64,000 nucleotides of DNA from a virus (taxonomy: Duplodnaviria; Caudoviricetes), in IMG/VR virus record IMGVR_UViG_3300032301_000859, positions 1,306 to 65,305 of that record; one strand, 5' to 3'. Below, in pieces: positions 1,733 through 61,092 of this stretch (position 1 is the first letter of the stretch; every line of letters begins with the position of its first letter). The position numbers and the translations under genes were made by a program. Below the pieces are notes generated by a model. The model was not told the origin of the DNA. It searched no databases and saw only the letters and a program-made list of their open reading frames with translations.

Positions 1733-2763
1733 TGCCCACATTTGATCCATCCGAAATTGAACTTGTGGCTCCACCACCTCCTCCTGGCGAAGGTCCAGGT
1801 GAAGGACCTGGTGGTGGTCCACCTAAACCACCAGGTGATGGTCCGAAACCTCCCGGTGGCGGAGACCCTAAAGATGAGCAACCTGAGCCAGAAATAGACA
1901 TGGACAAAATCCACAAAGAGGTAGAGGACAAGTTAGCTCGTCGTGAGGAAATTGGCACAGAGGAAGAGCTCAAGCAGAAAGACCAGAGTGTGCACGGGCC
2001 AGGTAAAAAATCCACAGGTAAACCTGGCGAAGGCGGGGCCATTGACCTAAAAAGTCGTGAATCTGAGATTTTACAGGTTAAACCCAAGTTTAACTGGAAA
2101 ACTCTAATCAAGAATCTTGTCACAGCCAGTGTGCCACAAACAGACATCACTTATGCAAAGCCCAGCCGTAGAGCAGTCACAGGCATAGCAATAGCTGCAC
2201 AAACTGGTGCAGGTGCGCTCAAGCCTGGTGAAAAGACATTAGAAGAGCACAAAGCTAAACTGGTGTTTGTGTTTGATACGTCAGGCAGCATGTGGGACGA
2301 AGTGCCACGTGTGATGGCAGAGGTTAAAAACCTACTCAAGCAACTGGGCAAGCAGAATGTGGACATGGGTGTTGTGTTTTTTGCTGGGGAGAACAAAAGC
2401 TTTGTGGTAAACATGGGCACAGACACATATGCCCAGGTGGATAAAATCACAAACATAGGTCAACAGGTACCCAAAGATGGTATCAAAAAGGGGTATAGGC
2501 ATGTGTTCAATCTGGGAGCCACAGGTGGTACACAATTCACAGTTAGTATTAGTAACCAGCTGAGTGAACTGGCTGCACAGGGCTACAACATCATGTTGTT
2601 CTCGGATATGGATATTGTGGACAGCAGTAACTTTGTGAATGTGAAACACTTGTGGCAAAACCACAAAGACAAGATGTTCTTGGTTGCAGTAAATGAGGCC
2701 ACTTTCAAGACTGCTTGTAATCTGTTGGGTGTGGTGCCCAGAACATTCACATATTTGACGTGA
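1732..2763 (+). CDS. VWA (von Willebrand A) domain protein with Pro/Gly-rich N-terminus
   Basis: MIDAS motif VFVFDTSGSM, later GGT and FSDMD; TGATG overlap with upstream gene. Confidence 0.85.
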   Translation: MPTFDPSEIELVAPPPPPGEGPGEGPGGGPPKPPGDGPKPPGGGDPKDEQPEPEIDMDKIHKEVEDKLARREEIGTEEELKQKDQSVHGPGKKSTGKPGEGGAIDLKSRESEILQVKPKFNWKTLIKNLVTASVPQTDITYAKPSRRAVTGIAIAAQTGAGALKPGEKTLEEHKAKLVFVFDTSGSMWDEVPRVMAEVKNLLKQLGKQNVDMGVVFFAGENKSFVVNMGTDTYAQVDKITNIGQQVPKDGIKKGYRHVFNLGATGGTQFTVSISNQLSELAAQGYNIMLFSDMDIVDSSNFVNVKHLWQNHKDKMFLVAVNEATFKTACNLLGVVPRTFTYLT

Positions 2764-2769
2764 TCACAC

Positions 2770-3420
2770 ATGCAGATGTCTAAAAAAACACAGGCAGATT
2801 TGATCAAATTAGTCAAACAACACTTTAAGTTAACCAAACTTACAGAAGTGAGTGTGGATGCAACCACTCAGGCTATTAATATTACAGCAGAGGCTGTGGA
2901 ACTAACAGCCAGAGGGCACATACCTATGAAATTGGGTCGTGTGGAGGGTGATTTTTATTGTATCTCATGTGAATTAACCTCTTTAGAAAATGCCCCTCAC
3001 ACTGTGACAGGAAGTTTTTGGTGCGTTAACAATAACTTGACCACATTAAAAGGTGGTCCGCAACATGTGGAAGGTGCTTGGTATGGGTGTGGTATTAATC
3101 CTTTAACAAACTTCGAGGGTGCTCCTGCGGATTTCACAGGATCATTCAGTTATCTTAATCAAGGGTCTAAAAAACAATACCATCTGGAAAATGTGGATGG
3201 GTTACCAGTGCATTGCAGGGCTGTGGAACTGAGTTATCAGAAAGATCTACCCATGTTAAAACTTATAAATCACGAGCCTCATGTTTTTACTGAAACATAT
3301 GATGGTGTTCATCCCATAGAGGGCATTTTGATGAAATATCGCAACCAGGGCAAAGCAGGAGCCTTAAAAGCAGCCATGGAGATGATCAGGGCTGGATACA
3401 AAGATAATGCCAGATGGTGA
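2770..3420 (+). CDS. LRR-like repeat protein, paralog 1 of 5
   Basis: LTSLENAP/LTTLKGGP/LTNFEGAP repeats; C-terminus GKAGALKAAMEMIRAGYKDNARW. Confidence 0.8.
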   Translation: MQMSKKTQADLIKLVKQHFKLTKLTEVSVDATTQAINITAEAVELTARGHIPMKLGRVEGDFYCISCELTSLENAPHTVTGSFWCVNNNLTTLKGGPQHVEGAWYGCGINPLTNFEGAPADFTGSFSYLNQGSKKQYHLENVDGLPVHCRAVELSYQKDLPMLKLINHEPHVFTETYDGVHPIEGILMKYRNQGKAGALKAAMEMIRAGYKDNARW

Positions 3421-3426
3421 TGATAA

Positions 3427-4086
3427 ATGGCCTTAACTGAAACACAAAAAACGCAACTGATTGATCTGTTCCATCGCAATTTCAGCACCAAGGATCTACA
3501 GGATGTGTGGATAGATGATGTGACACATGAACTGAGTGTGAAGGCGCATATGATCACTCTCATGACCATGGGTGAAATACCTGTCAAGTTTGGTCTTGTG
3601 CAAGGTCATTTTATGTGCGCATTCAAAAATCTCAAAAGTTTGAAAAATGCACCACACACAGTCACAGGTAACTTTGGTTGTTATGGTAATTTGTTGACCA
3701 GTTTAGAGGGTGGGCCACAAGATGTGGGCCGCACAGAAATGGGCGGAGGCACATACGCATGCAGCAACAACAATTTGATAAACTTTATGGGTGCACCACA
3801 ACAGTTCACAGGATACTTTGTGGCTGTTAATGAAATGAATGAAGACCTGATGAGTGTGGATGGTTTACCACCAGAGGCAAGACAGGTGGATATAACCTAT
3901 CATGCACACTTACCCCTGTTAAAATTGTTAAACCAAAAACGAGTCACGGTGAGATATGCAGGGTCAGGCCAGGAACATCCTGTGACTGCCATCCTGGAAA
4001 AATATGCAGGCACAGGTAAGCCAGGTGCCATTAAGTGTGCTGTGGAAATGATCCGAGCTGGTTATAAGGATAATGCAAGATGGTGA
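3427..4086 (+). CDS. LRR-like repeat protein, paralog 2 of 5
   Basis: LKSLKNAP/LTSLEGGP repeats; C-terminus GKPGAIKCAVEMIRAGYKDNARW. Confidence 0.8.
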   Translation: MALTETQKTQLIDLFHRNFSTKDLQDVWIDDVTHELSVKAHMITLMTMGEIPVKFGLVQGHFMCAFKNLKSLKNAPHTVTGNFGCYGNLLTSLEGGPQDVGRTEMGGGTYACSNNNLINFMGAPQQFTGYFVAVNEMNEDLMSVDGLPPEARQVDITYHAHLPLLKLLNQKRVTVRYAGSGQEHPVTAILEKYAGTGKPGAIKCAVEMIRAGYKDNARW

Positions 4087-4092
4087 TCAATC

Positions 4093-4764
4093 ATGGCCAT
4101 AACTGAAGCAGAGAAGAAAGAACTAACAGAGTGGTTTTATGCTAGTTATCACACTGTGCAACTGATGCGAGTTTGGGTGGACGAAGAAACACATGCAGTG
4201 AATGTGAAAGCTTTTTCCATCAAGCCCAAATTTAAAAAAAACATACCCTTTAAAATGGGTTTGGTCACAGGCAATTATGAGGCCCATGCATGTGAACTGG
4301 AATCCTTGCATAACGCACCTCACACTGTGATGGGCAGCTTTTTATGCCAAAACAACTACCTGACCAGTTTGGAGGGTGGGCCAAAAAGTGTGGGGTCCGC
4401 TCTGCCCTACGGTGGCACATACAGCTGTTCCCATAACTTACTGAGTAATTTTGAACATGCACCCACAGATTTCTCAGGACATTTCATAGGTACAGAACAA
4501 ATGGGCAAAGGTCTCACAAGTGTGGATGGCATACCCCTTGACTCTAGCTATGTGACCATGAGTGCACCACCCAATCTGCCTCTGCTAAAATTGACACAGC
4601 ACAAGCATACGCTGCATGTGAGTTTGAGATACCCTCATGTGGGTGGCGAAAATAAAAAGCTGACTGAAATCTTTGACACTCATGCAGGTCAAGGCAAAGC
4701 AGGCGCACTGAAAGCCGCTGTGGCCATGATCAAGGCCGGATTCACAGGTAATGCCAGATGGTGA
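4093..4764 (+). CDS. LRR-like repeat protein, paralog 3 of 5
   Basis: LESLHNAP/LTSLEGGP repeats; C-terminus GKAGALKAAVAMIKAGFTGNARW. Confidence 0.8.
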   Translation: MAITEAEKKELTEWFYASYHTVQLMRVWVDEETHAVNVKAFSIKPKFKKNIPFKMGLVTGNYEAHACELESLHNAPHTVMGSFLCQNNYLTSLEGGPKSVGSALPYGGTYSCSHNLLSNFEHAPTDFSGHFIGTEQMGKGLTSVDGIPLDSSYVTMSAPPNLPLLKLTQHKHTLHVSLRYPHVGGENKKLTEIFDTHAGQGKAGALKAAVAMIKAGFTGNARW

Positions 4765-5465
4765 ACACATCACACATAAAACAATTGTTCAAAATATACT
4801 TTTCAGATATTTGGACTACTGAACACCTTAATGATTATGAATATTTGATCCAGCCTGATGGCACCATTCAAGTGCCCAATAGTAATTTGTACATGCGTAA
4901 ACCTACCTCAAATGGCATGCTGCCCGTTAAGTTTGGTATAGTGGGTGGCAGTTTTATACTGGACAAGAGCCGATTGACCACACTCCAAGGCGCACCCACA
5001 GAGGTATTGGGAGATTTCAACTGTAGCAAAAACTTGTTGCCCAGTCTGGTTCATGCACCCGCAAAAGTGCATGGTCACATGGATTGCAGTTATAATAACA
5101 TTACAAGTTTGGAACATTGTCCCACTGTGGGTATATTGGATTGCAGCCACAATCTGCTCACCGATCTCACTCATGCTCCTCCATGTGACCAGCTTTATGC
5201 ACACAACAATCCCATGGAATCATTTAAACATACACCTGATCACATAGGCACTGTGGTGATAAGTTATGGTGCCACACTACCACTATTGGGATTATTAAGC
5301 GTGCCAAAGATTGAACTAGAGACCACTAATGATTTCCCCAACAGATTGGCACTTTTACCCATTGAACGCATATTGAACAAATACACTAGACAAGGCAGGG
5401 CAGGTACACTCAAGTGTGCTGCTGAATTGGTGAGAGCAGGATACAAGGATAACGCCAGATGGTAG
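4758..5465 (+). CDS. LRR-like repeat protein, paralog 4 of 5
   Basis: LTTLQGAP/DCSxNxLxxL repeats; C-terminus GRAGTLKCAAELVRAGYKDNARW. Confidence 0.8.
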   Translation: MVNTSHIKQLFKIYFSDIWTTEHLNDYEYLIQPDGTIQVPNSNLYMRKPTSNGMLPVKFGIVGGSFILDKSRLTTLQGAPTEVLGDFNCSKNLLPSLVHAPAKVHGHMDCSYNNITSLEHCPTVGILDCSHNLLTDLTHAPPCDQLYAHNNPMESFKHTPDHIGTVVISYGATLPLLGLLSVPKIELETTNDFPNRLALLPIERILNKYTRQGRAGTLKCAAELVRAGYKDNARW

Positions 5466-6082
5466 ACACAGATCAGATTGAAAGACTCATGTACAATTAC
5501 TTTGAAGATGCATATTTGCAACGCATCACACCAGATGATTATGCGATAGATTCGGATGGTGCAGTGCATGTGAAAATAGACGTCTGCATGGTCAAAAGTA
5601 CACCCAACAGGATGTTACCTGTTCAGTTTGCAGTGGTGGATGGTAATTGCATGTTGTCAGACAGACAGCTCAAGAGCTTGAAGGGTGCTCCACACACAGT
5701 TAACGGAGATTTTGATTGCAGTTACAATTTACTCACAAGTCTGAAGCATGCACCCACAAATGCTATTGAATTATTGTGCAACAACAATCTGTTAACCAAT
5801 CTGACTGATGCACCTGCATGCCAGTTGCTGTGGGCCACTAGAAATCCTTTTCAAAGCTTCAAACACACCCCTGATCATATTTCAGAGGTGGTTATATCAT
5901 ATGCACCAGACCTACCCTTGTTGGGACTGTTGAGTGTGGGTAAAATTATGTTTGAACAGGATTCTGATCTAATTCAGCTGACAGAAATCCTTAACAGACA
6001 CACACAGCAGGGCAAAGCAGGTCAGCTCAAGTGTGCAGCAGAACTGATCAGAGCAGGATTCAAATCTAACGCATACGTTTAA
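5459..6082 (+). CDS. LRR-like repeat protein, paralog 5 of 5
   Basis: LKSLKGAP/DCSYNLLTSL repeats; C-terminus GKAGQLKCAAELIRAGFKSNAYV. Confidence 0.8.
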   Translation: MVDTDQIERLMYNYFEDAYLQRITPDDYAIDSDGAVHVKIDVCMVKSTPNRMLPVQFAVVDGNCMLSDRQLKSLKGAPHTVNGDFDCSYNLLTSLKHAPTNAIELLCNNNLLTNLTDAPACQLLWATRNPFQSFKHTPDHISEVVISYAPDLPLLGLLSVGKIMFEQDSDLIQLTEILNRHTQQGKAGQLKCAAELIRAGFKSNAYV

Positions 6083-11638: not shown

Positions 11639-12079
11639 ATGCGTAGTAGCCAACTCAAGACTCCCACTGTTTCCAGCAAGGTGTCCACTGACCAATGCAA
11701 GAAGTTTATTGTGGACTTTGTTACACGCAATCCCAGTCTGATCATGAGCATTTATGGTGAGTCTGAATATCCTGAGGATCAGGAAGAGCTGGATCAGCTC
11801 ATGAAAGTGGCTGTCAAGCCTGGTAATTGGTCACGTACCCAGCGTTATATGATCACAAGTGATAGCAATAACTGCCCCACCAATTATGACTATAACCGCA
11901 AGCGTGATGTGAGCGTGGATGCATACAGTGTGGATCGTGATGGCACCTATGAAATCCCTATTGAAAGAATTACCTGGGTGCGAGAGTTTGATCTCAAGCC
12001 ATCAGAAGGCGCAGTAGCCTTTGCAGTGCTGGAAGATGTGGATGGTCATCTGCACATGGGTCCTTATATGGGCGACTGA
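11639..12079 (+). CDS. Hypothetical protein
   Basis: 146-aa ORF with AAGGA SD downstream of a promoter. Confidence 0.75.
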   Translation: MRSSQLKTPTVSSKVSTDQCKKFIVDFVTRNPSLIMSIYGESEYPEDQEELDQLMKVAVKPGNWSRTQRYMITSDSNNCPTNYDYNRKRDVSVDAYSVDRDGTYEIPIERITWVREFDLKPSEGAVAFAVLEDVDGHLHMGPYMGD

Positions 12080-12113
12080 CTTGTGCTCAACGTGTAGCTA
12101 GTAAAACCCACGT

Positions 12114-12647
12114 GTGCCACCCTTTTTTAGAGGTCTTGCAACTGTGCCAGAGTTTATTGTTTGCAGCAAGAGCCAGGTCAAGAAAACCGTCAAGCGATTT
12201 GAAGCCACCCATCTGGTAACCACACTGGATGTGGGGGACAGCATTTTCCGTCCTGTGAGTATTCCACCCCTCCATCATCTGCGCCTAAGCTTTGATGACG
12301 AGGAGGACCCACAAAGGCCCCATGCTCCTCAGTTGTTTCATGCTGAATCAATTCTGAATTGGGGCAGTCAACTACCACCTGATGCAAGAGTTGTCATCCA
12401 TTGTTTTGCGGGACAATGTCGCAGCACCGCCGTGGGGTTGGCTTTATGGTTGCAGGCAAATGGACTGCACAAGTTTGATGAGGCTCGTGCATGGCTGCTG
12501 GATCATAGGTCCTCAGCCTGCCCCAATCTGCTGTTGGCCAAGTATTTTGACCAACTGTTGCTCCTGGATGGTACGTTCTTGAGTTTTTGTGACAAAATTG
12601 GAGAGGACTGCATGGCCCGTTGGTGGAAGAACAACGTTCCTGATTGA
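12114..12647 (+). CDS. Protein-tyrosine/dual-specificity phosphatase-like protein
   Basis: CX5R signature VIHCFAGQCRS; HLRLSFDD; PNLLL. Confidence 0.8.
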   Translation: MPPFFRGLATVPEFIVCSKSQVKKTVKRFEATHLVTTLDVGDSIFRPVSIPPLHHLRLSFDDEEDPQRPHAPQLFHAESILNWGSQLPPDARVVIHCFAGQCRSTAVGLALWLQANGLHKFDEARAWLLDHRSSACPNLLLAKYFDQLLLLDGTFLSFCDKIGEDCMARWWKNNVPD

Positions 12648-12762
12648 TTACAAACAGCTTACAACACACCGCATAACGCAGCTAGGGTATATGAGCAAAG
12701 GCTCTTACATACAAATTGGAGCCAGCCGTCCCTATTCAAACAATAGTTCTTGGCTTTCCGTG

Positions 12763-13532
12763 TTACGTCTCGGATGCTGGAGGGTGTGGCTTATCTATTT
12801 GGGTATGGGATGACATTAAATTTGTCAATTGCTCTTGAGATATCGGATCAAGTTTAAATGCTTTTCTAACAATATTGATTGCATTTAATTTGTTCCCTAC
12901 TATTCTCCAATCATTTTCCCAATGGGAAAATGCACGAACAAAATACGATTTACTTCTTTTGTAGCTTCTTTCGTATTCAAGTCTTGCAAAAATCTCTGCA
13001 CAACTGGTAAAGCAGCTATTTGTGTAGGAGTTAATCCAGATCCATCAGGATTATGCATAGTAAGGGCATCTGCTATGGCAGTCTTTAAGGCATAAGGCAC
13101 TGATTCTTTACTCTTTGCCCTATTTGGGAAGTATCTGGTTAACACCCTACCTACTTTCCATATGATAGACTGTTCTGTAAAGTTAGGAAACAGTTTTTGA
13201 ATTTCTGGTAATCTAGCAAGTTGCTTTTGTGTTAGAGGTGGAGAATTTGGGTCATGAGATGCAAATGCATTTTCAATACTTTGTTTCAATTGATCTACTA
13301 GACCACCTCTTTTGCCTCTATCTTTAAAATGCCTACTTAAGATATTGTTTACCTTATCTTTGGTCTGTTTATCAGTAAGTCCAGGCATAAGATTTCTAAG
13401 ACTGGGTATGTTTATTAGTTCTACAGCCGATATGAATTTACCATTTAATTCACTACTGTCAAGGGTTTGACCTATTAATTGTTTAAGTTTTTCAGCTGTC
13501 TTTTCAGATTCAAATAATTCACTAATCTTCAT
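12763..13532 (-). pseudogene. Nuclease-deleted paralog of the neighbouring endonuclease: open ORF 13532->12900 plus an out-of-frame C-terminal remnant 12921->12763
   Basis: Starts MKISEL; three helical repeats; remnant WENDWRIVGNKLNAINIVRKAFKLDPISQEQL matches WESNWRSKAGKLNAINEIRKAFDLDPITQDEL of the neighbour. Confidence 0.75.
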
Positions 13533-13594
13533 CTCCGTCTCCACACACAGTTTGATATTTACCCAACTAGCACATAATCTGAATAAGCAGACAT
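13516..13594. repeat. Direct repeat copy A (promoter, SD and first codons)
   Basis: cgtctccacacacagtttgatatttacc.aactagcacataa.ctgaata shared with 14899-14982. Confidence 0.9.
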
Positions 13595-13688
13595 GGCAGA
13601 TGTTATCCAAGGCAATTATATACAAAGTGGGACCAACTCTTGCCACTTAGTTTCTATAATGCAAAACTAAAGTTTTTAGATTCTTATG

Positions 13689-14915
13689 TCATTTCTTGGC
13701 AGTCGGATGTTTGGGTTCATTTACTTGAGTATCAGATAGCAGTAAATCCTTCAGTTCGTCTTGGGTGATTGGATCAAGATCAAAAGCCTTTCTGATTTCA
13801 TTTATAGCATTCAATTTACCTGCTTTGGATCTCCAATTGCTTTCCCACACTACAACTACTTGATATCCTTGGCTTATAAGGTAATCAATTTTGGCCTTGT
13901 CTTTAAGCCAAATCTCACCCACAGTAAATCTAGTGTTGGGTATTTGTTGTGTGGGATCTTTGAATCTTTTGGGATTAGCATGCCAGAGATCACCAAAAAA
14001 CTCAATTGCTATTTTAGGCTTGGAAGCATGCAAGCCATCTATGTTGTAAAACAGCCTACCTTCTCTAGCTATTTTGAAATTTCGTTGTATGCCCACAATG
14101 CCTATCTTTTCAAGTTTATCAAATAAATCGTTTTCTGCTGCACTTACATTAGGATCTTTGGGCCTAGTTGCCATATGTTTTTGCAGCAATTCTGTATAAT
14201 AGTTGGGCAACACCCTTAGCCTGTTATATACAGCAGTTTCGCTTCTACCCAATGTGGATGCTATTTGTCCAAATGTTTGACCTTCTGCAAATTTTTCCTG
14301 GGCATATTCAACGTCTTTATCAGTTAAATTGGTTTTTTTCCTTTTCCTATCCGCATAATAAGTGTCTAAAATCATAGATATTCTATTGATAGATGAATCG
14401 TCTGTATTACCATAAAGCTCAAGGGCCACTTCTTTTTTAGATTTTCCTTGATCATATCCTGTTTTTGCAGCAACTATTTCTTCTTGTGTTACAGGAATAT
14501 TGATTTTTTTGTTAGATCTTTCGTGGTAATGGCTATACAGGATTTCGTTAACTCGCTGAATGGTTTTTTTGTCTGTTTTATCATATAGCTCTATGGCAAT
14601 TTGTTTACTGCTGTAGCCATCATCCTTGAGTTTTTTAACAGCTTCAACTTCATCATCAGTTGTGGGCACCATTATTTTTCTTTTGGGCCGGTCAGGCCAG
14701 TGCTGCTGTAATATCCATCCCACTTTTATCTCGGCTTTTTTTGGATCCATAGGTCCCAGTAATCTGGATACATCAGGCAGAGATGCTATTTCCCGATTTG
14801 TTCTAAACGAGTTGTTCACAGGATTTATATAACTGGATTTGATTATGTCTTTTAGATCTTGAGAAATAGGAAACCCTTTGGCTTCTTTGATATGCAACAA
14901 TTCACTTATCTTCAT
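13689..14915 (-). CDS. HTH-repeat protein with C-terminal Vsr/DUF559-like (EDxHD-type) endonuclease
   Basis: SAAE..LF..L, IDG, AIEFFGDLWHANP, KD..K..YL..QGYQVVVVWE; four helical repeats N-terminal. Confidence 0.8.
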   Translation of the reverse strand: MKISELLHIKEAKGFPISQDLKDIIKSSYINPVNNSFRTNREIASLPDVSRLLGPMDPKKAEIKVGWILQQHWPDRPKRKIMVPTTDDEVEAVKKLKDDGYSSKQIAIELYDKTDKKTIQRVNEILYSHYHERSNKKINIPVTQEEIVAAKTGYDQGKSKKEVALELYGNTDDSSINRISMILDTYYADRKRKKTNLTDKDVEYAQEKFAEGQTFGQIASTLGRSETAVYNRLRVLPNYYTELLQKHMATRPKDPNVSAAENDLFDKLEKIGIVGIQRNFKIAREGRLFYNIDGLHASKPKIAIEFFGDLWHANPKRFKDPTQQIPNTRFTVGEIWLKDKAKIDYLISQGYQVVVVWESNWRSKAGKLNAINEIRKAFDLDPITQDELKDLLLSDTQVNEPKHPTAKK

Positions 14916-14982
14916 TTGCGTCTCCACACACAGTTTGATATTTACCTAACTAGCACATAAGCTGAATATACAAAGCAGACAT
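14899..14982. repeat. Direct repeat copy B
   Basis: Near-identical to 13516-13594. Confidence 0.9.
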
Positions 14983-14989
14983 AGACATC

Positions 14990-15435
14990 ACGGTAAAGAA
15001 CTCCGTGGGCGGAAGGGATGGTCTCCATCAGGAACGCAAACAAATCAGCCCATTTCTGCTGGCTGGACCGGGAAGCACCGCTGCCTCCAGCATATGAAAA
15101 TCTACCAGTGCGAACCCGGAATATGATGACCACAGTAGGGGAATGGGTCGCTTCAAATTATCTTTCAAATGTGATGCATTTGATTAAATGGGTGGCTCTG
15201 GTCTGAGCTGATCAACCACCAGGAACATGTGTGTCACACAAGGCATGCACATGTTTTACCGCTGTGAGGTGATAAACCTCAGATAGCACATGATTTGCGA
15301 AAGCGAACACAGGTACCGGACAACCGCCTGTGGAGACAAACTCTCGAAATGTGGCCTTGTGTCCTGATCACTGCGTACCAAGATCTGGTTTATCTTTCCG
15401 GGTCATGCCGGGAAGATAGTCTCCTTCCTCCAGCA
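14990..15435 (+). ncRNA. Candidate large structured ncRNA, family unassigned
   Basis: No convincing ORF; at least 8 hairpins; GAAA tetraloop and G-U pairs favour the + strand; CpG-rich relative to the window. Confidence 0.55.
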
Positions 15436-15464
15436 CCCAATGATTAATAATTAAGCTGATAGTA

Positions 15465-15812
15465 TCAGTCTAAATGTTTGGTATTCCATAAACGCATGAG
15501 AATGCCTGCTAGTGCATTGGCTTCATTCTCTATATCACTTCCAGTCACACCATCAGCACCAGTTAATGGTGAAATTTGAGCCTGGGCTAGATGTACCAGC
15601 TCGTGGGCCAGCGTCCTCAAGCAATCTGTGGGATGACGATCTTTGCAACTGATCACAATCTTGTGTGTTTTAAAATCATAATAACCAAAACTGACCTGCG
15701 ATCCCACCTGAATGGGTTTATTAATCAACTGCACATGAATCTTGCCGCGCAGATTCAGCTTGGGCCTGCACCATTCAATAAACTCGCTGCATTGATTTCG
15801 ATAATCATTCAT
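15465..15812 (-). CDS. Small HExxH metallopeptidase-like protein
   Basis: LRTLAHELVHLAQ ... ENEANALAG; TAAATA-N5-ATG start. Confidence 0.8.
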   Translation of the reverse strand: MNDYRNQCSEFIEWCRPKLNLRGKIHVQLINKPIQVGSQVSFGYYDFKTHKIVISCKDRHPTDCLRTLAHELVHLAQAQISPLTGADGVTGSDIENEANALAGILMRLWNTKHLD

Positions 15813-15842
15813 GTGGTTATTTACTTATCTCATGCTCACAGA

Positions 15843-15874
15843 AAAGGGTCATGATCTCACAATCATGACCCTTT
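15843..15874 (-). terminator. Intrinsic terminator (possibly bidirectional)
   Basis: AAAGGGTCATGAT-ctcaca-ATCATGACCCTTT. Confidence 0.8.
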
Positions 15875-15891
15875 GTGTGGAAAACCCGCAG

Positions 15892-16080
15892 TTACTTTTG
15901 CTTGGAACTTGGTTGTGAGAAGGTTTCCATGATGCCAAATGCATCCTTGTATGGGTTATTCTTGACCACTTCAGTCACAAATTCCTGTGTGCTCTTCACA
16001 AAGGTCATGTGGGTGTTGTACACCATATTGGTCATGGTGGTCAGGTAGTCTGAATAAACTTGAAATAGGTTGTTGGTCAT
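15892..16080 (-). CDS. Small helical hypothetical protein (phasin-like pattern)
   Basis: AAGGAG SD before ATG16080; amphipathic helix pattern only. Confidence 0.55.
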   Translation of the reverse strand: MTNNLFQVYSDYLTTMTNMVYNTHMTFVKSTQEFVTEVVKNNPYKDAFGIMETFSQPSSKQK

Positions 16081-16243
16081 GATATGTACTCCTTGGTTGG
16101 GGTTAAAAAAGTTATTTAGTGGAACTTTGCTGCACCGCACAATAAGTATTAATTGTAAATCATGAGATGTCAAATAAACAAATTGTGTGGTTTACTGGGG
16201 AAATCTCCTTGACAAACATCCTACTATACATTTAAATATCTGT

Positions 16244-16293
16244 AGTGGACTATGGACTGTCTCAACCCACTTTAAACATTCTGCGCAGTCATC
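16244..16293 (+). promoter_or_regulatory. Putative H-type pseudoknot leader of queD
   Basis: AGTGG/CCACT stem; loop GACTG complementary to downstream CAGTC; begins 5 nt after TAAATA. Confidence 0.45.
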
Positions 16294-16319
16294 AAACATC
16301 GCTCAACAGGAGACAAGAG

Positions 16320-16802
16320 ATGGCTAAATGGATTAGCACAAAGACTTATAGGCAGATTGGGCCTGTGGCTTACCGCCAATGGAGAGCAGATAGTCATTGC
16401 AAATTTTTGCACGGATACGCGCTCAGCTTCCACCTAGAATTTGAGTGTGACACACTGGATGCTCGGAACTGGTGCATGGATTTCGGTGGTTTACGCCCTC
16501 TCAAAGAGAAACTAGAAGAATGGTTCGATCATACTCTCTTATTGGCACTTGATGATCCTCAGTATGCTGAGATCAAGAAATTAGGGGATCTGGGTCTGGC
16601 CAAGATAACTGAAGTTGAGAAAACAGGATGCGAAGGTATATCGGACTTCCTGTACAAATACATTAACGGTGTGTTCCTTCCTCAATGCGGGGCATCTGAA
16701 GCTGAACGAGTTTGGTGCAGTATGGTGCAGGTCCGTGAGACAGATGCCAATATGGCCATGAGGGTGGGCCACAGGGAAGATGGTGAGGAACTGTTCTCGT
16801 AA
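16320..16802 (+). CDS. queD: QueD-like 6-carboxytetrahydropterin synthase (PTPS family)
   Basis: SHCKFLHGYAL, WCMDFGGL, FDHTLL, GCE, VRETDAN; AGGAGA SD. Confidence 0.85.
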   Translation: MAKWISTKTYRQIGPVAYRQWRADSHCKFLHGYALSFHLEFECDTLDARNWCMDFGGLRPLKEKLEEWFDHTLLLALDDPQYAEIKKLGDLGLAKITEVEKTGCEGISDFLYKYINGVFLPQCGASEAERVWCSMVQVRETDANMAMRVGHREDGEELFS

Positions 16803-16823
16803 TAAATCCCTGAAATTTCCTGG

Positions 16824-16851
16824 TTGACAATCTGGATGATCATGCTACAAT
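16824..16851 (+). promoter_or_regulatory. sigma70-type promoter, 16-bp spacer
   Basis: TTGACA-16-TACAAT with CATGC. Confidence 0.7.
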
Positions 16852-16907
16852 GCCCTTGTTGTGCTAATAGAGCAAGGGAGCAGCATGTGCATCAAGGAGT
16901 TTGGTTC

Positions 16908-17324
16908 ATGACCCACAAGGATGACACCATCATGGACATGCTGAAAACCATGGCTGAAGACAACCAGAATGAGTTTAGGGCCAGATTGGCTGCTTGTATC
17001 ACATACAAGGGCAAGATTGTGAGTGTGGGGCTTAACAGACCCAAGAGCCATCCTTTTCAACTGCTGTATGGAAAAAACAAGGACAGTTTGTTTCTGCATG
17101 CAGAGGTTGATGCCATTTACAAGGCCACCAAGAGGCTGGATGCTCATGAGCTCAGCAAGAGCACACTTTATGTGGCGCGGGTCAAGCGTGTGAGTAGTGT
17201 GCACAAGGGTTTCATAAATGGCCTGGCTAGGCCTTGTGTGGGATGTGCTAGGTGTATTGCCAACTTTGGTATCAAAAAGGTGGTTTATACTACTGAACAT
17301 GGCTTTGATGTAGTTGAGTCTTGA
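16908..17324 (+). CDS. Zn-dependent cytidine/deoxycytidylate deaminase-like protein
   Basis: HAE ... PCVGC; IKKVVYT; AAGGAG SD. Confidence 0.82.
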   Translation: MTHKDDTIMDMLKTMAEDNQNEFRARLAACITYKGKIVSVGLNRPKSHPFQLLYGKNKDSLFLHAEVDAIYKATKRLDAHELSKSTLYVARVKRVSSVHKGFINGLARPCVGCARCIANFGIKKVVYTTEHGFDVVES

Positions 17325-17328
17325 CTGA

Positions 17329-17532
17329 GTGGCCATATTACCTTATCAGGTCATAGTGGCGGGTGACGAACGTTACCATCAAGTGAAATCTTGGTGTCTT
17401 ATACACTGGCCTTACACCCAGGGCGCCACCTGGTGCGAAATGTGCACAGGCTGTGATCAGAGAGGCAGAGTATTCAAGTTTTGGTTTCAACGACAAGAAG
17501 ATTTTCTACTATATCAAATCACTTGGACATAA
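17329..17532 (+). CDS. Small hypothetical protein
   Basis: WC...F.F....DF..Y..TW pattern, shared loosely with 30106-30333. Confidence 0.55.
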   Translation: MAILPYQVIVAGDERYHQVKSWCLIHWPYTQGATWCEMCTGCDQRGRVFKFWFQRQEDFLLYQITWT

Positions 17533-18860: not shown

Positions 18861-20120
18861 GTGCTCCACAAGGAACCTTATCTTTTGACAGCCAACATCA
18901 AAATCTTACACACATGCAGTTTTTGTGGAAAAAATCAAACACAGGTCAAAACACTTGTGAGCGGTAACGGTGCATTCATTTGTAATGAATGTGTGGAACT
19001 TTGTTTGGAAGCAATAGTACCCAAAGCAAATGCGTCGCCAGCCACCAAAACCATATCTTGGACTCCGCCACAGATAGTTAAACATCTGGACGCACATGTG
19101 ATTGGCCAAAACCATGCCAAGAAGATCCTGAGTGTGGCCATATATAACCACCTTAAGAGAATTGAACATCCAGAAGTGGACGGTGTGCAAATTGATAAAA
19201 GCAATGTGCTCATGATTGGTTCATCAGGTGTGGGTAAAACTCACATGGTGAGTGCATTGGCTAAGATTTTACAAGTTCCGTTTGCTGTGGTGGATGCAAC
19301 CAGTCTGAGTCAGACTGGGTATGTGGGCTTAGACCCTGAGGAATGTTTGGTGCGTCTGTATCAGAGTGCAGAACAAGATCTGGCCAGGGCCCAACAAGGT
19401 ATCATTTTTATTGACGAAATTGATAAGATTGGTCGCAAGAGCGGTGAGAATGTGAGCACCACCCGTGATGTGAGCGGTGAGGGCGTGCAACAGGCATTGC
19501 TAAAGATTATAGAAGGCAATGATGTGAAATTCTCACCAGCAGGTGGTCGTAAGAACCCCAACGGAGAATTTGTCACCATGAACACCCGGAATGTGTTGTT
19601 CATCTTGGGCGGTGCATTTGATGGTTTAACTTCCATTATTGGTCACCGCATTAAAGACAAAACTGCACAAGTGGGCTTCAATGCACAAGTACAAGACAAA
19701 GAGTCAGAACTAGAACACCAACAATTGCTACCCCAAGTGGACACAGAAGACCTTATTTCTTTTGGTATGATTCCTGAGCTAATTGGTCGTGTGCCTGTGA
19801 TCCTGCCTTTTGAAAATTTGGATGTGCACATGCTTAAACGCATATTGGTGGAACCACAGAATGCAATTGTCAAACAATTTCAAGCCATGTTCAAGCTGGA
19901 AGGAATTCATTTGGAAGTTCTGGAGGATGCGCAAACTGAAATTGCCCAACAAGTGCTGCGCACAAAGACTGGTGCTCGTGGCTTGCGGCGAGTCATGGAG
20001 CGCATACTCACAGACAGTCTGTATGAAGTTCATGAGCTCAAAGCCAAGTTGGTGCGGGAAATCCATATCACACCAGAATGCGTGACACAAAACCAATCTC
20101 CACATTATGTGATTGACTAA
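18861..20120 (+). CDS. clpX: ATP-dependent Clp protease ATP-binding subunit ClpX (start possibly TTG ~18885)
   Basis: C4 Zn finger CSFCGK..ICNECV, Walker A GSSGVGKT, FIDEIDKI, RDVSGEGVQQALLK, VGF loop, TGARGLR. Confidence 0.96.
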   Translation: MLHKEPYLLTANIKILHTCSFCGKNQTQVKTLVSGNGAFICNECVELCLEAIVPKANASPATKTISWTPPQIVKHLDAHVIGQNHAKKILSVAIYNHLKRIEHPEVDGVQIDKSNVLMIGSSGVGKTHMVSALAKILQVPFAVVDATSLSQTGYVGLDPEECLVRLYQSAEQDLARAQQGIIFIDEIDKIGRKSGENVSTTRDVSGEGVQQALLKIIEGNDVKFSPAGGRKNPNGEFVTMNTRNVLFILGGAFDGLTSIIGHRIKDKTAQVGFNAQVQDKESELEHQQLLPQVDTEDLISFGMIPELIGRVPVILPFENLDVHMLKRILVEPQNAIVKQFQAMFKLEGIHLEVLEDAQTEIAQQVLRTKTGARGLRRVMERILTDSLYEVHELKAKLVREIHITPECVTQNQSPHYVID

Positions 20121-25606: not shown

Positions 25607-27142
25607 ATGAACACAGTGCCTGCAATTTGGCCTTATCAGCAAGCTGAGCGTGTGCAAGACAGAATCACCCAGTTGGGCAAGACTCAGGCAGTGTTTGAAA
25701 CTGGGTATGGTCCCAGTGGATTGCCCCACCTGGGCACCTTTGCAGAAGTGGCCCGCACCACCTGGGTGCGCAAAGCATTTGAGAAGCTAACTCACATGCC
25801 CACTCAACTGATTGCATTTAGCGATGACATGGATGCACTCAGAAAGGTTCCCCAAAATGTTCCTCATCCAGAAATTCTTGAATCATATGTGGGTCGCAAG
25901 CTGAGTTCCATTCCTGATCCTTGGCAAACTCACAGCAGTTATGCAGCGCACAACAATGCAGAGCTAACAAAGTTTTTGGACCAGTATGGGTTTGAATATG
26001 AATTCCTGAGCAGTACCACATGCTATCAGACAGGCCAGTTCAATACAGGCCTTTTACGCATGGCTGCGTGTCATGATGAGATTTGTGATTTGGTGCGACC
26101 CACTCTCAAGCAAGAGCGCCGTAACACATACTCACCTTTCCTGCCCATCCACCCTGTGACAGGGGAAGTCATGCAGGTGAGAATCGAGAAAGTGCATGTG
26201 GAAGACCGTGTGTTGGTTTGGCAGGATCCCCACGACCTCACTTGGTATCAAACCCTGATCACAAATGGTGCTTGCAAGGCTCAATGGAAGGCAGACTGGG
26301 CGCTGCGCTGGTATGTGTTGGGTGTGGACTTTGAGATGAGTGGCAAGGATCTCATGGACAGTGTCACACTCAGCAGCAAGATTTGCAGAGTGCTGGGGGC
26401 TGAACCACCTGTGAGCATGACTTATGAATTGTTCCTGGATGAGGCAGGACACAAGATCAGCAAGAGTGTGGGCAATGGTGTGAGCATGACAGAATGGTTG
26501 CGTTATGCTCCTGCAGACAGTTTGTGTCAATTCCTGTTCCCTAATCCTGGTCGCGCTCGCCGTATTCAGGTCAGTCAGATTCCACAAACTGTGGATGAGT
26601 ATCTCTCAAATGTAAATCGTTTGGTGGAAAGTGAAGATGTCACGAACCCTGCCTATCATATTCTGGGTGATCGTGCACCACAGGCCACAGATGTGAGTTA
26701 TCAGATGATCTTGAATCTGGTGAGTGTGTTGAACACCACTTCCACACAAATGGTCCTGGAGTTCCTGCAACGATATCATGTGGATATCATACCAGATCAT
26801 GTGTTGACGGAATTGGTGCAGTGTGCTATTAACTATTTTGAAGACCACATGCTGCCCCACCGTGTGTTTGCAACTCCCACTCCTGCTCAAGCTGCGGCCA
26901 TTCTGGATTTAAGGAACATACTAGCCACACTGGACGAAAACAGTGCTGTGGATGAAATTCAATATCATGTGTTTGAAGTGGGCAAGGCACATGCATTTGA
27001 TCCACTACGTGACTGGTTTGCATGTCTGTATCAGGTGCTACTGGGTCAGCATCAGGGTCCCAGGTTTGGTGGATTTGTGCATTTGTATGGTGTGCAGAAC
27101 ACTGTGTGTCTTATGGATGCCAAGTTGTTAAACCATATTTGA
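25607..27142 (+). CDS. lysS: Class I lysyl-tRNA synthetase
   Basis: FETGYGPSGLPHLGTF (HIGH), FSDDMD.LRKVP, KAQWKADW, KISKSVGNG (KMSKS), GPRFG. Confidence 0.95.
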   Translation: MNTVPAIWPYQQAERVQDRITQLGKTQAVFETGYGPSGLPHLGTFAEVARTTWVRKAFEKLTHMPTQLIAFSDDMDALRKVPQNVPHPEILESYVGRKLSSIPDPWQTHSSYAAHNNAELTKFLDQYGFEYEFLSSTTCYQTGQFNTGLLRMAACHDEICDLVRPTLKQERRNTYSPFLPIHPVTGEVMQVRIEKVHVEDRVLVWQDPHDLTWYQTLITNGACKAQWKADWALRWYVLGVDFEMSGKDLMDSVTLSSKICRVLGAEPPVSMTYELFLDEAGHKISKSVGNGVSMTEWLRYAPADSLCQFLFPNPGRARRIQVSQIPQTVDEYLSNVNRLVESEDVTNPAYHILGDRAPQATDVSYQMILNLVSVLNTTSTQMVLEFLQRYHVDIIPDHVLTELVQCAINYFEDHMLPHRVFATPTPAQAAAILDLRNILATLDENSAVDEIQYHVFEVGKAHAFDPLRDWFACLYQVLLGQHQGPRFGGFVHLYGVQNTVCLMDAKLLNHI

Positions 27143-28711: not shown

Positions 28712-29884
28712 ATGCAAGATCCAAATTCCATTCTGAATCCAGCACTGTGGTCCCTGCGTGATGCATTTAGGGCTCAAGGATTTGACATAAAATTGGTTGG
28801 GGGTTGTGTGAGAGACCTCATGCTGGGTCTCACACCCAAGGATGTGGACTTGCACACAGATGCAACACCTGACGAGTGTGTGCTCATCTACCAAGCTGAG
28901 GGTGTGCGGTTTGAAGAAACAGGGCTCTCACATGGCACCATTAGTGTGATCTTTGATCATGTGGCTTATGAGATCACCAGTCTGAGGACAGACACAGAAA
29001 CGGATGGCAGGCATGCTGTGGTCTCATATACTCGTGACTGGCATACAGATCTTCTTCGTCGGGATTTTCGATTCAATGCCATGAGCATGAGCTTTGAAGG
29101 TGACATCCTGGACCCTTTTGGGGGTCAGGCAGATCTTGCGGCAGGTGTGGTCAGGTTTGTGGGAGATGCTGAAACCAGGATCAAGGAAGATTACCTGCGC
29201 ATCCTGCGTTGGTTCAGGTTCCGTGGCAGGTTTGGTATGCACATGGATGCCGCTGCAGAGCATGCAGTGCGTACTCATGCTCATGGACTGGAACAAATCA
29301 GTCGTGAACGCATTTGGAGTGAGGTCAGCAAGATACTGTCAGGCGACCATGCAGTGCAGCTCATGAAAGACATTCATGACCTGGGTGTGGACAAACACGT
29401 GGACATGCATCATGCCCTTGAATGCACCAGTGTTTGTGCAGACGATGTTAATCTGGCAGTTCATGAACAAACACGCAATCCTGTCACCATGCTGGTGGCG
29501 GTGTGTGACCACCATGCAAAACAAATTCTTAAAATATGGAAAGCAAGTTCAGCAGAGATCAAACTGGCAGAGTTTTTGTACAGCAATCTGAACAATGATC
29601 CTTTCCGTCTTATGGCTGTAGAGGATGTGAGCAGAGATTGGGCTATAGAACTGTGTGTGCTGAATAATGCATTAAATGATTCACATGTGTCGGATGGTGG
29701 CTTCATGAAGGCAGTGCTGGAGGAATGGGAAGTGCCTGTGTTTCCAGTAACAGGACGTGACTTGATTGAGATGGGCATGATACCTGGGCCACGCATGGGT
29801 CAAATGCTCAAGGACCTCAAGCACAGGTGGGCCAACCAGGAATACCAAATCAGTAAGCAGGATCTGCTACAACTTGTGTTTTAA
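28712..29884 (+). CDS. cca: tRNA nucleotidyltransferase (CCA-adding/poly(A) polymerase family)
   Basis: LVGGCVRD...KDVD, RRDFRFNAM, RIKEDYLRILR..RF, ISRERIW.E, FPVTGRDL. Confidence 0.92.
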   Translation: MQDPNSILNPALWSLRDAFRAQGFDIKLVGGCVRDLMLGLTPKDVDLHTDATPDECVLIYQAEGVRFEETGLSHGTISVIFDHVAYEITSLRTDTETDGRHAVVSYTRDWHTDLLRRDFRFNAMSMSFEGDILDPFGGQADLAAGVVRFVGDAETRIKEDYLRILRWFRFRGRFGMHMDAAAEHAVRTHAHGLEQISRERIWSEVSKILSGDHAVQLMKDIHDLGVDKHVDMHHALECTSVCADDVNLAVHEQTRNPVTMLVAVCDHHAKQILKIWKASSAEIKLAEFLYSNLNNDPFRLMAVEDVSRDWAIELCVLNNALNDSHVSDGGFMKAVLEEWEVPVFPVTGRDLIEMGMIPGPRMGQMLKDLKHRWANQEYQISKQDLLQLVF

Positions 29885-59700: not shown

Positions 59701-61092
59701 ATGAAGCCAACTGTCACAAGTGAACGCAATCGTGATCGCGATGCAACCAAAATCTATCTTAAGGAAGTCAGTCATACCCCTTTGCTAACACATGATCAAG
59801 AGAAACAGTTAAGTCAACAAATTGAACATGTGAAAACTGAGCAGATTTTGTGCATGCTGAGCTTGAAGGCATGTCGTGAACGCTTCACACAGGCTGTTGC
59901 GGATGCGCTTGCTGGCAAGCCTGAAATCATGTTGAGTGTGGATTCAGGCCAGCCATTGGATATCAAACTAAAAGATCAACTGACTCAACTGCATGCACTC
60001 ATCACACAGCAGACTGTGTCAGATCATGTCAAAGACCAAATTGCAGACTGTGTGCGAGAGCTTCCACTACAGTTGAAATTCATAGCAGAGCTGATTCAGA
60101 TTGTTCAGCCCATCATGCAACAGATTACTGCATGCCAAGGAGCTTTAATGCGCTTTGCAATCAGCCAAAACATCTCACGTGAACAGTTCCTGGCCAACTA
60201 TCAGAGTTTGACGCCTGCCCTGATCTGGCAACAGTTTGAGACCACTCATGCGGCACAGGTGAACACATTCAAACAGGAAATTGATAGAGTGAGTGAGCTC
60301 ATGGGTGTGAGTGCACAAGAACTACAAATAAAGCATGCCCATCTGCGTCAGCTACAGCGGCAGAAGGAAAAGATTGTGGAGCACATGCTCAAGAGCAACT
60401 TGCGCCTGGTGGTGAGTGTGGCCAAGCGATACATCAATGTGAGTTCCACTCCACTATTGGACTTGGTACAAGAAGGTAATATTGGCCTATTAAAGGCAAT
60501 TGAGAAGTTTAATTGGCGCATGGGTTTCCGATTTAGCACATATGCCACCTGGTGGATCAAGCAGTGTGTGCTCAAGGCTCTCAATGAGCAGCATCGCATT
60601 ATTAGAGTGCCCAGCCACATGACAGATTTGGTCAAGCGTGTGAGCCGTGCTCGCGATGAACACATCAAACAAGTGGGTTATGAACCTTCTCCGGAAGAGA
60701 TTGCAGTAATCTTGGAAGTGGATGTGAACACAGTAAACCGTGTGTGGACAGTGGCACAAGGCACCATCAGTCTGGAAACGCCCATTGGTTCAGAAGATGA
60801 TCAAAACTTGGGTCATGTGATTGAAGATCCCAATGGCATGAGAGCATTTGAACTGGTGAGTGAAGTGGATCAGGTGAACGCAGTTTGTGATGTGCTTTCA
60901 GAGCTCACACCCAAGGAAGAGCGTGTGATTCGCATGCGATTTGGCATTGGTATGGACCGTGAGTGCACCCTGGAGGATATTGGTCAGGTGTTTGGTGTCA
61001 CACGTGAGCGTGTGAGACAGATTGAGTTCAAGGCACTGCACAAACTTAAGCAGCCTGATCTGGCACGCAAGCTGCAAGAAGCCACAGAATGA
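59701..61092 (+). CDS. rpoD: RpoD-like sigma70 factor lacking region 1.1
   Basis: YLKE...PLLT..E; NLRLVVSVAK.Y; DLVQEGNIGL.KA.EKF; FSTYATWW; TLE.IG..F.VTRERVRQIE. Confidence 0.93.
   Translation: MKPTVTSERNRDRDATKIYLKEVSHTPLLTHDQEKQLSQQIEHVKTEQILCMLSLKACRERFTQAVADALAGKPEIMLSVDSGQPLDIKLKDQLTQLHALITQQTVSDHVKDQIADCVRELPLQLKFIAELIQIVQPIMQQITACQGALMRFAISQNISREQFLANYQSLTPALIWQQFETTHAAQVNTFKQEIDRVSELMGVSAQELQIKHAHLRQLQRQKEKIVEHMLKSNLRLVVSVAKRYINVSSTPLLDLVQEGNIGLLKAIEKFNWRMGFRFSTYATWWIKQCVLKALNEQHRIIRVPSHMTDLVKRVSRARDEHIKQVGYEPSPEEIAVILEVDVNTVNRVWTVAQGTISLETPIGSEDDQNLGHVIEDPNGMRAFELVSEVDQVNAVCDVLSELTPKEERVIRMRFGIGMDRECTLEDIGQVFGVTRERVRQIEFKALHKLKQPDLARKLQEATE

Follow-up and report, generated by a model that had tools for sequence, protein, structure and literature searches.

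The question raised by this locus is what is made from a gap in which no credible open reading frame (ORF) is found. The gap (14928-15464) lies in the window, by which is meant the whole 64-kb stretch analysed here, out of a 65.3-kb IMG/VR record (IMGVR_UViG_3300032301_000859) of a virus of the Caudoviricetes, and it is flanked by two minus-strand genes, one for a 412-aa helix-turn-helix (HTH)/nuclease protein (13689-14927) and the other for a 115-aa ImmA-like protein (15465-15812). An earlier note on this DNA had proposed that a structured RNA candidate of ~450 nt is encoded here and that it may form, with the adjacent endonuclease, an RNA-nuclease system. The first proposal has been borne out, while the second has not. 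In fact, the segment ~14970-15443 on the plus strand is held with high confidence to be a real structured RNA gene, independent of the nuclease, and it belongs to a previously uncatalogued RNA family carried by uncultured jumbo phages.

The plus strand folds better than its shuffled versions (z = -3.96, with 0 of 100 shuffles as good), while the minus strand does no better than shuffles (z = -0.93). In a two-sequence comparison, 30 of 117 predicted pairs were altered on both sides. Four alignments were used, A5 holding 21 distinct homologues of the full RNA and A6, A7 and A8 covering its 5', central and 3' domains, respectively. In the 5' domain, 98.3% of the cells were paired and 19 of the 28 pairs showed two-sided changes, values matched by 0 of 500 shuffles; when the 3' partners were slid by 1-3 columns, pairing came to 28-36%. 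The central domain gave 89.7% of cells paired and two-sided changes at 28 of 32 pairs (again 0 of 500 shuffles), and the 3' domain 85.4% and 12 of 19, with 0 of 500 shuffles matching either the cells paired or the covariation score, although the variable hairpins of this last domain are imperfectly aligned and the pair statistics there are conservative. Altogether, at least 12 helices are maintained by compensatory changes. Moreover, the paired cells contain 115 G-U against 15 A-C combinations, and therefore the transcript is the plus strand, as the earlier note had read it. No reading frame proved to be conserved across the family, and of the 86 indel runs counted between close pairs, 78 have a length which three does not divide. 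The architecture, whose homology between members spans 14992-15443, is the following:

14970-15443, + strand: structured non-coding RNA (ncRNA) gene, ~470 nt; conserved core 14984-15443; 21 aligned homologues.
14989-15007, + strand: H1, 5' hairpin CACGG/CCGTG with a 9-nt loop (A6 helix 1; 100% of cells paired, 4 of 5 pairs covarying).
15008-15041, + strand: invariant GGCGGAAGGGA, overlapping the H2 hairpin (GATGG/CCATC, 15017-15029; 2 of 4 pairs covarying), then invariant TCAGGAACGCAAAC.
15045-15066, + strand: H3 hairpin TCAGCC/GGCTGG (A6 helix 4; 5 of 6 pairs covarying, 95.7% of cells paired).
15068-15119, + strand: H4, made of an outer CCGGG/CCCGG stem (15068-72/15115-19), a conserved internal loop and an inner CGCTG/CAGTG stem (15079-83/15106-10) (A6 helices 5 and 6; 4 of 5 pairs covarying in each).
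15097-15106, + strand: H4 terminal loop with the pyrimidine-rich segment W.
15123-15153, + strand: H5, a variable hairpin; the segment is missing from L172, L196 and L170 (A5).
15155-15183, + strand: conserved AAATTATCTT, then the H6 hairpin (15165-72/15176-83) with a conserved TGTGAnGCA apex (A7 helix 1; 6 of 8 pairs covarying, 95.9% of cells paired).
15191-15220, + strand: H7, with outer GGTGG/CCACC, a conserved CTCTG bulge and a short inner stem (A7 helices 2 and 3; 3 of 5 and 3 of 3 pairs covarying).
15222-15257, + strand: H8, a long variable hairpin (A7 helix 4; 10 of 10 pairs changed on both sides).
15259-15286, + strand: invariant CCGCTG, the H9 hairpin (TGAGGT/ACCTCA, 15265-81) and the purine segment Z (AGATAG, 15281-86) (A7 helix 5; 6 of 6 pairs covarying).
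15287-15353, + strand: H10 multi-branch with closing stem CACAT/ATGTG, containing a variable hairpin (15295-15306), the conserved H11 and another variable hairpin (15333-15345); closing stem and variable hairpins supported by comparisons.
15308-15332, + strand: H11, CACAGG-TACCGGACAACCG-CCTGTG (5 of 7 pairs covarying in A8).
15391-15418, + strand: H12, 11-bp 3' hairpin, its lower 5' strand being segment X and its 3' strand segment Y (A8 helix 3; 7 of 11 pairs covarying).
15420-15443, + strand: 3' tail, TCTCCTTCC plus the widely conserved CACCCAA; TCTCCTTCC complements GGAAGGGA in window-type members only.

Around ten blocks of sequence do not vary at all, most of them at junctions or in internal loops. 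The GGCGGAAGGGA and TCAGGAACGCAAAC blocks are identical in 21 of 21 sequences, and likewise in members found via synteny or an independent pattern; CCGCT is identical in all family members, and the H11 loop, of consensus GTACCGAGCAACCGCC, is nearly invariant (both in A5). Less regular are the lower three pairs of H12, broken in 6-7 of the 21 sequences, and the register of the tail pairing, which varies across the family. Pairings between GGCGG and CCGCT and between GCG and CGC, made of invariant bases only, are also possible. By the loose use of the term, this is an 'ornate' orphan ncRNA, being longer than 400 nt, non-coding and rich in both covarying helices and conserved unpaired nucleotides.

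The sequence, coordinates and features quoted in the earlier note were all present as described, and seven of its eight helices were kept among the homologues. Covariation supports those at 15017-15029, 15191-15220 (GGTGG/CCACC), 15224-15255 (AACATGTG/CACATGTT), 15265-15281, 15295-15306 and 15308-15332 and the 11-bp stem at 15391-15418. The GAAA loop of the 15295-15306 hairpin, read in the note as a GNRA loop, is not conserved, since this hairpin varies freely. The eighth, TGCTGG/CCAGCA (15057-15092), is not supported, its bases falling in H3 and in the H4 hairpin. Two further helices predicted from the window and locus L004 alone, the long-range CAGGA-ACGCA/TGTGT-CCTG and a closing GGAAGGGA/TCTCCTTCC, were discarded as they are not kept family-wide. 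As regards the claim that CpG dinucleotides persist in the RNA despite depletion elsewhere, it holds weakly: the observed/expected ratio is 0.62 in the RNA and 0.38 in the window, which places the RNA in the top 6% of equal-sized windows.

The family was collected in several ways. IMG/VR contigs reached through the ImmA-like neighbour contain a copy, 72% identical, whose match spans precisely 14992-15443, the RNA being more conserved there than the adjacent ImmA-like protein (64% identical), and a metagenome scan with the ImmA-like protein family gave six further RNA-bearing contigs. In addition, a pattern taken from two blocks invariant in the members then known (GGCGGAAGGGA, 8-20 nt, CAGGAACGCA) matched 32 stretches in IMG/VR. 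Thirty of them hold nhmmer homologues (E 1e-16 to 1e-65; 28 about full length and 2 ending at the contig end), the remaining two being the already known L004 and L005 contigs. A second pattern, from another part of the RNA, returned 17 of the same loci, two copies cut off where the contig ends and one stretch not confirmed by the model; therefore, the invariance of the first blocks is not an artefact of the way in which members were collected. In all, the family covers ~30 IMG/VR jumbo-phage contigs and six metagenome contigs, with ~20 distinct loci and ~21 distinct sequences. Four large contigs each carry two diverged copies, which lie 106 kb apart in a 328-kb contig. The carriers are tied to RaK2/121Q-like jumbo phages by two virion-protein families (phrog_12928 and phrog_13138) beside other RNA copies. 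The family is probably larger than counted, and ~45 closer homologues of the ImmA-like neighbour, listed in JGI, ENA and Logan, lie outside the count.

Beyond these phages, the searches were negative. Searched by BLAST, 50,697 phage records contained no match to the RNA of the window or to the L177 copy; neither R1, the covariance model of the 5' domain, nor the first pattern with 3 mismatches allowed matched Escherichia phage 121Q or Sinorhizobium phage Phosso; and R1 found no RNA in 100 further loci with more distant ImmA-like genes. Pattern matches in six high-GC bacterial genomes or metagenome-assembled genomes (MAGs) were confined to the pattern segment and were taken as chance. A weak end-to-end R1 match of 102 nt in a Planctomycetota MAG contig (JAAYBA010000383.1; L200:3114-3215; 16 bits, rough E 0.012) is probably chance too.

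Three neighbourhoods are found around the RNA gene. Neighbourhood A consists of DnaK, a DSP-type phosphatase, two small genes, the RNA and the convergent ImmA-like gene; neighbourhood B of PhoH, two virion proteins, the RNA, phrog_10980 and a SpoU methylase; and neighbourhood C of two small membrane-like genes, the RNA and, further on, an Rv2179c-like exoribonuclease. No protein common to A, B and C was found. The search for a partner protein across them gave none, as the ImmA-like (c0) and phrog_10980 (c6) proteins are unrelated and clusters c20 and c21 look like spurious ORFs. Enzymes acting on RNA ends or modifying RNA do occur near the RNA, which is suggestive, and they differ between the three contexts. 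In neighbourhood A the right-hand neighbour is conserved:

15465-15812, - strand: ImmA-like (HExxH) gene, 115 aa, running towards the RNA gene and conserved on its right in neighbourhood A; weak Pfam match to DUF6782.

Homologues of this gene are named 'ImmA (M78 family)' in their source records, and it adjoins the RNA in 10 neighbourhood A loci and lies near it in L175. In one phage a PfkB-family kinase gene stands between the two (L092:4496-5398), and therefore the adjacency is not strict. As for neighbourhood C, the translations of two ORFs immediately 3' of the RNA in L168 (8037-8727, or 1805-2495 with the RNA on the plus strand), and likewise in L184 and L195, are implausible and of low complexity; these ~700 nt may also be without a protein-coding gene, with room for a further RNA or for a long extension of the 3' end.

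That the RNA gene would have its own sigma70-type promoter is suggested by the conservation of a promoter-like position in flanks which otherwise cannot be aligned between neighbourhoods:

14935-14963, + strand: putative sigma70-type promoter, -35 TTGATA (14935-14940), 17-nt spacer and -10 TAAGCT (14958-14963), with positional conservation.

A TTGNNN hexamer followed 16-18 nt on by a TAnnnT-like one keeps a constant distance from H1 in 12 of 18 variants, and the same pair occurs 7-8 nt further upstream in three more. Transcription would start near 14970. Among RNA runs, none was found to contain the stretch; one low-share run, compared over 13000-17500, yielded a single 252-nt contig of a relative, over 15155-15379, which speaks neither for nor against transcription.

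The next point is whether this RNA is a known one. At the gathering score, Rfam 15 gave no match in the whole window nor in 16 homologous loci (105 kb in total), a result which covers GOLLD, ROOL, OLE, HEARO, raiA, pRNA, 6S, SRP and the riboswitches; relaxing the cut-off to E<=10 brought up nothing in the window or L177 and two chance hairpin matches in L170. ARAGORN found no tRNA or transfer-messenger RNA (tmRNA) in the window or in 30 loci. The earlier note had described an unassigned large ncRNA without a tmRNA, RNase P or group I/II signature, and these searches, the covariation and the conserved promoter position all agree with it. A group I or II intron was rejected, the neighbour genes being complete and convergent or unrelated in three contexts, with no flanking exons and no Rfam intron match. 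For RNase P RNA there is no covariance-model match at E<=10, and the only P4-like helix (15068-72/15115-19) closes a hairpin of ~45 nt, not a specificity domain. Short strings resembling conserved regions of E. coli M1 RNA (GACCGGG...GCGAACCCGGAATA against CR-I/CR-V, and GAGCAACCGCC and GGTAAA against the specificity domain) served as a lead only and were rejected. In fact, the window RNA resembles type A RNase P RNA in size, but its P4-like helix is local, the other strings stand in different structural contexts and its GGTAAAGAACTCC loop is not conserved within its own family. Likenesses to RNase P, T-loop, kink-turn, SRP, T-box and cobalamin-riboswitch elements were dropped for want of a covariance-model match and for mismatched topology.

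In Escherichia phage 121Q (NC_025447.1), three ORF-free repeats (90233-91319, 247438-247798 and 326509-327553) are 73-80% alike. They share three short strings with the window RNA (CAGTGCGA, TAAAGAACTCC and AGAGCAACC) in a different order; the copy at 326509 contains CAACAGTGCGATGAGCAAAAGAAACCCG, TAAAGAACTCC and AGAGCAACC, which resemble window-RNA strings, again in another order. The strings of this copy also recall the RNase P specificity domain, but in a different order. No nhmmer, covariance-model or motif similarity links the repeats to the window RNA family, and therefore homology is not shown. As for the literature, an IMG/VR-wide survey (PMC10690425), whose RNA candidates are all <=151 nt, a 2026 review of jumbo-phage biology (PMC13282480) and the abstract of a cryo-electron microscopy (cryo-EM) paper on ornate RNAs (PMC12286853) contain no such RNA. 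According to this abstract, GOLLD, ROOL and OLE form RNA-only multimers; cryo-EM structures of GOLLD and ROOL are given in that paper.

It is with GOLLD (RF01998) and ROOL (RF03087), RNAs of phages, prophages and bacteria, that the window RNA is best compared. All are multi-helix, highly conserved ncRNAs of more than 400 nt carried by phages, with their own transcription unit, without a fixed protein partner gene and with possible long-range or intermolecular contacts. The window RNA differs in having no sequence or covariance-model similarity to them, in not lying beside tRNA genes and in having been met so far in no phages other than uncultured jumbo phages whose virion genes are RaK2/121Q-like. 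The RNA is the product of a stand-alone ncRNA gene of ~470 nt. On this analogy, it would be made as a stable transcript whose compact tertiary fold acts in trans, either as a scaffold to which protein or RNA binds or as a catalytic core, like GOLLD and ROOL; it would not be a guide, a cis-regulator or a DNA signal. Action in trans through the fold is considered rather likely, and the explanation as a whole, which can be no firmer than its weakest committed part, is accordingly given the same moderate confidence.

There are also two candidate long-range pairings. Segment W, in the terminal loop of H4, is in most members complementary to segment Y, which forms the 3' side of H12, and the two vary together (AUCUUCC/GGAAGAU, UAUUCUCC/GGAGAAUA, GCUCUCC/GGAGAGC, AUAUCUCC/GGAGAUAU and CAUGCUCUCC/GGAGAGUAUG), and segment Z, the purine run after H9, complements segment X, the lower 5' strand of H12, with variants which co-vary as read by eye on A5. 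Cognate W:Y duplexes reach -9.4 kcal/mol against -7.2 kcal/mol for non-cognate ones, and Z:X duplexes -6.0 against -4.0 kcal/mol, while the W:Z control shows no difference (-3.4 against -3.2 kcal/mol). These pairings may be intramolecular pseudoknots, an alternative conformer or switch, or contacts between copies.

Several points weigh against this explanation. W:Y and Z:X are rated as candidates only, because the local stem of H12 competes for the same strands and the complementarity is weak in 7 of 19 sequences; furthermore, about one third of the non-cognate partners pair as well as the cognate ones. The sequences are related, so that the shuffle controls overstate significance somewhat, a weakness from which the slid-partner controls are free. 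Individual promoter matches are not significant, a generic consensus scan gave none, and the transcript ends are predictions. No canonical terminator follows the RNA, and because of this its 3' end may be made by processing. As to action in trans, it is argued from analogy and by exclusion, a function-defining motif or a partner protein not having been found. Finally, the closest relative, L003, has lost most of the gene:

12118-15360, no strand: segment deleted in L003, with the junction at a shared GTGTG microhomology.

The 3.2-kb deletion (L003:1740-1843) takes with it the genes for the phosphatase and the two endonucleases and all but the last ~94 nt of the RNA gene, and no second RNA copy is seen in the 65-kb fragment of L003. 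For these reasons the phage may be able to do without the RNA, at any rate at this locus; alternatively, a back-up copy may lie in the 85% of the L003 genome that was not sampled.

A bolder version can be drawn from the same material, namely that this is a new large RNA class of giant phages which catalyses a reaction or self-assembles into an RNA particle, its gene being also the homing target of a Vsr-like endonuclease; W:Y, Z:X and the palindromic GGTACC loop would then be intermolecular contacts. It is put forward tentatively, as doubtful, and its two halves, taken singly as rivals of the scaffold-or-core explanation, are both considered unlikely. The first is that the RNA would be a ribozyme, either a trans-acting RNA-processing enzyme or a self-processing RNA released from a longer transcript. 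Large ribozymes are typically of such a size and rich in invariant unpaired nucleotides, with pseudoknots like the candidates here, the missing terminator leaves room for a processed 3' end, RNA-end or RNA-modifying enzymes stand within one to three genes (a DSP-type phosphatase and a NUDIX protein in A, the SpoU methylase in B, the Rv2179c-like 3'-5' exoribonuclease in C), and the phage encodes a lysyl-tRNA synthetase and a CCA-adding enzyme. Nevertheless, enzymes of this sort are common among jumbo phages and are not the same from one neighbourhood to the next, neither the window nor the 30 loci contain a tRNA gene, Rfam offers no RNase P, group I/II or small-ribozyme match even at E<=10, the P4-like CCGGG/CCCGG helix encloses only ~45 nt, and flanking exons are absent, the neighbours being convergent or unrelated.

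The second half, self-assembly, would make of the RNA a homo- or hetero-oligomer, like the ROOL and GOLLD cages or the ring of phi29 packaging RNA (pRNA), with the complementarities as intermolecular contacts. That W:Y and Z:X co-vary yet compete with a good local hairpin is what would be expected of trans or strand-swap contacts. The invariant GGTACC of the H11 loop is palindromic, four contigs have two diverged copies each, the RNA gene of neighbourhood B directly follows two virion-protein genes, and GOLLD, ROOL and OLE provide precedents of RNA-only multimers (PMC12286853). The proposal is, however, an inference throughout: intramolecular pseudoknots or a conformational switch would also account for the complementarities, which one third of the sequences show only weakly, and there is no homology to pRNA, ROOL or GOLLD. 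It is judged improbable to the same degree as the ribozyme.

Far less credit is given to the possibility that the stretch acts as DNA (a replication origin, a packaging site or a recombination hotspot) or as a cis-acting untranslated region of a neighbouring mRNA, for which the large gene-free stretch between convergent and divergent genes, and the recombination breakpoint and deletion end inside it, might speak. The compensatory Watson-Crick and G-U pairs belong to one strand only, as does the fold signal, so that the pairing is of RNA type, and the 'origin RNA' suggested earlier has no support. Moreover, the element stands among unrelated genes in three neighbourhoods with its own promoter-like site, and the breakpoints are explained by endonuclease homing and microhomology deletion.

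The homing endonuclease brings us to the left-hand neighbour, for which three features are needed:

13689-14927, - strand: free-standing homing-endonuclease-like gene, 412 aa, with HTH repeats and a C-terminal nuclease, divergent from the RNA gene.
12900-13646, - strand: second, truncated endonuclease-like gene, of the same protein cluster (c19) as the intact one.
13694-15043, no strand: tract of 94-100% nucleotide identity with L091, reaching from the endonuclease gene across the shared promoter region to ~70 nt into the RNA gene.

The 412-aa protein matches phrog_3339 ('homing endonuclease', E 2e-5) and phrog_13076 ('endonuclease', E 9e-4); its Pfam match is confined to HTH domains (HTH_38), and Pfam and PDB sequence searches detected no Vsr fold or nuclease in it. 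Its gene adjoins the RNA in only two of ~20 distinct loci, the window and L091, being missing from L004, L090, L092, L093 and all neighbourhood B and C loci, so that there is no consistent co-occurrence. Between the window and L091 the protein is 98% identical and in the same place, whereas the ImmA-like neighbour is 62% identical, the left flank (11655-12714) 92% and the right flank (15490-15690) 74% at the nucleotide level, and the genes to the right of the RNA ~60-74%. Past the tract, sliding identity is 76% over the 50 nt which follow and mostly 40-50% beyond 15093 (72% in one bin). In addition, the truncated endonuclease-like gene carries at 13547-13594 a copy of the 50-nt region upstream of the intact one, the repeat being 87% identical.

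The sporadic presence of the gene, its 98% identity across diverged phages and the end of the tract inside the RNA gene have led to a reading by homing with co-conversion: on these comparisons, the nuclease appears as a homing endonuclease inserted beside the RNA gene and spread by gene conversion, carrying along the 5' end of that gene, and as a parasite of the locus rather than a partner of the RNA. Adjacency is therefore explained without any functional tie. The free-standing homing endonucleases of phage T4, seg and mob, are found next to conserved target genes. The window nuclease is like them in being sporadic, near-identical across diverged genomes and intergenic beside a conserved gene, with a co-converted flank and a decaying copy adjacent; it differs in that the gene beside it, which it may also target, encodes a structured RNA and not a protein. 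A 299-aa ORF of the same cluster in L174 (1644-2543) lies between two paralogous ORFs of ~300 aa (c41; L174:689-1633 and 2594-3487), or, with the RNA on the plus strand, at 4114-5013 between 5024-5968 and 3170-4063, ~1 kb downstream of the RNA copy, and may be a separate homing event. The weakest of the rivals, the earlier idea that the RNA is a guide or scaffold partner of the HTH/Vsr nuclease, draws on their adjacent, divergent arrangement in the window and L091 and on the upstream region which both endonuclease-like genes share with the RNA promoter, but it is largely refuted by the distribution over three neighbourhoods. Against it stand also the homing-endonuclease family match, the near-identical, co-converted tract, the truncated copy decaying alongside and the want of any hypervariable guide-like segment, the variable parts being paired stems and both termini conserved, and it retains hardly any credibility. 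Lacking both a regular nuclease partner and a variable guide next to a conserved scaffold, the RNA does not class with the omega-RNA of IscB/TnpB or with tracrRNA-type scaffolds either.

As for the phage itself, the window is a fragment of a genome of several hundred kb, this size being deduced from a CheckV completeness of 16%. Its proteins include DnaK, a QueD-like enzyme, a deaminase and a fragment of DNA polymerase III alpha, and its sigma70 is full-length, with regions 1.2 to 4. Also encoded are a class I lysyl-tRNA synthetase (25607-27142), a CCA-adding/poly(A)-polymerase-type nucleotidyltransferase (28712-29884), ClpX (18861-20120) and an HSP90-like ATPase (32852-34972), the sigma70 gene lying at 59701-61092. 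Across the window (1-64000) CpG is strongly depleted, at the observed/expected ratio given above, with GpC normal (1.09) and a G+C content of 44.8%, which is unusual for a phage; the depletion may be due to avoidance of CpG-containing restriction/modification sites or to host mimicry.

Bacterial and phage RNAs of more than 400 nt with dense covariation are rare. Those which are understood (ribosomal RNAs, RNase P, group I/II introns and tmRNA) do fundamental jobs, and the orphan ones, such as OLE, GOLLD, ROOL and raiA, are being intensely studied, as they hint at unknown RNA biochemistry or at RNA-only architecture. In this context, the family described here adds to the orphan large RNAs a well-supported and compact example, specific to uncultured giant phages with their own sigma factor, chaperones and translation-related enzymes. 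It offers an alignment, around ten invariant blocks and long-range pairings which can be tested, in a size suited to in vitro transcription, chemical probing and cryo-EM. The locus is also a clear-cut example of how a probable homing endonuclease can take up a place beside a structured-RNA gene, part of which it carries between phages. Catalysis or self-assembly, if true, would be the more exciting possibilities for this family of phage RNAs.

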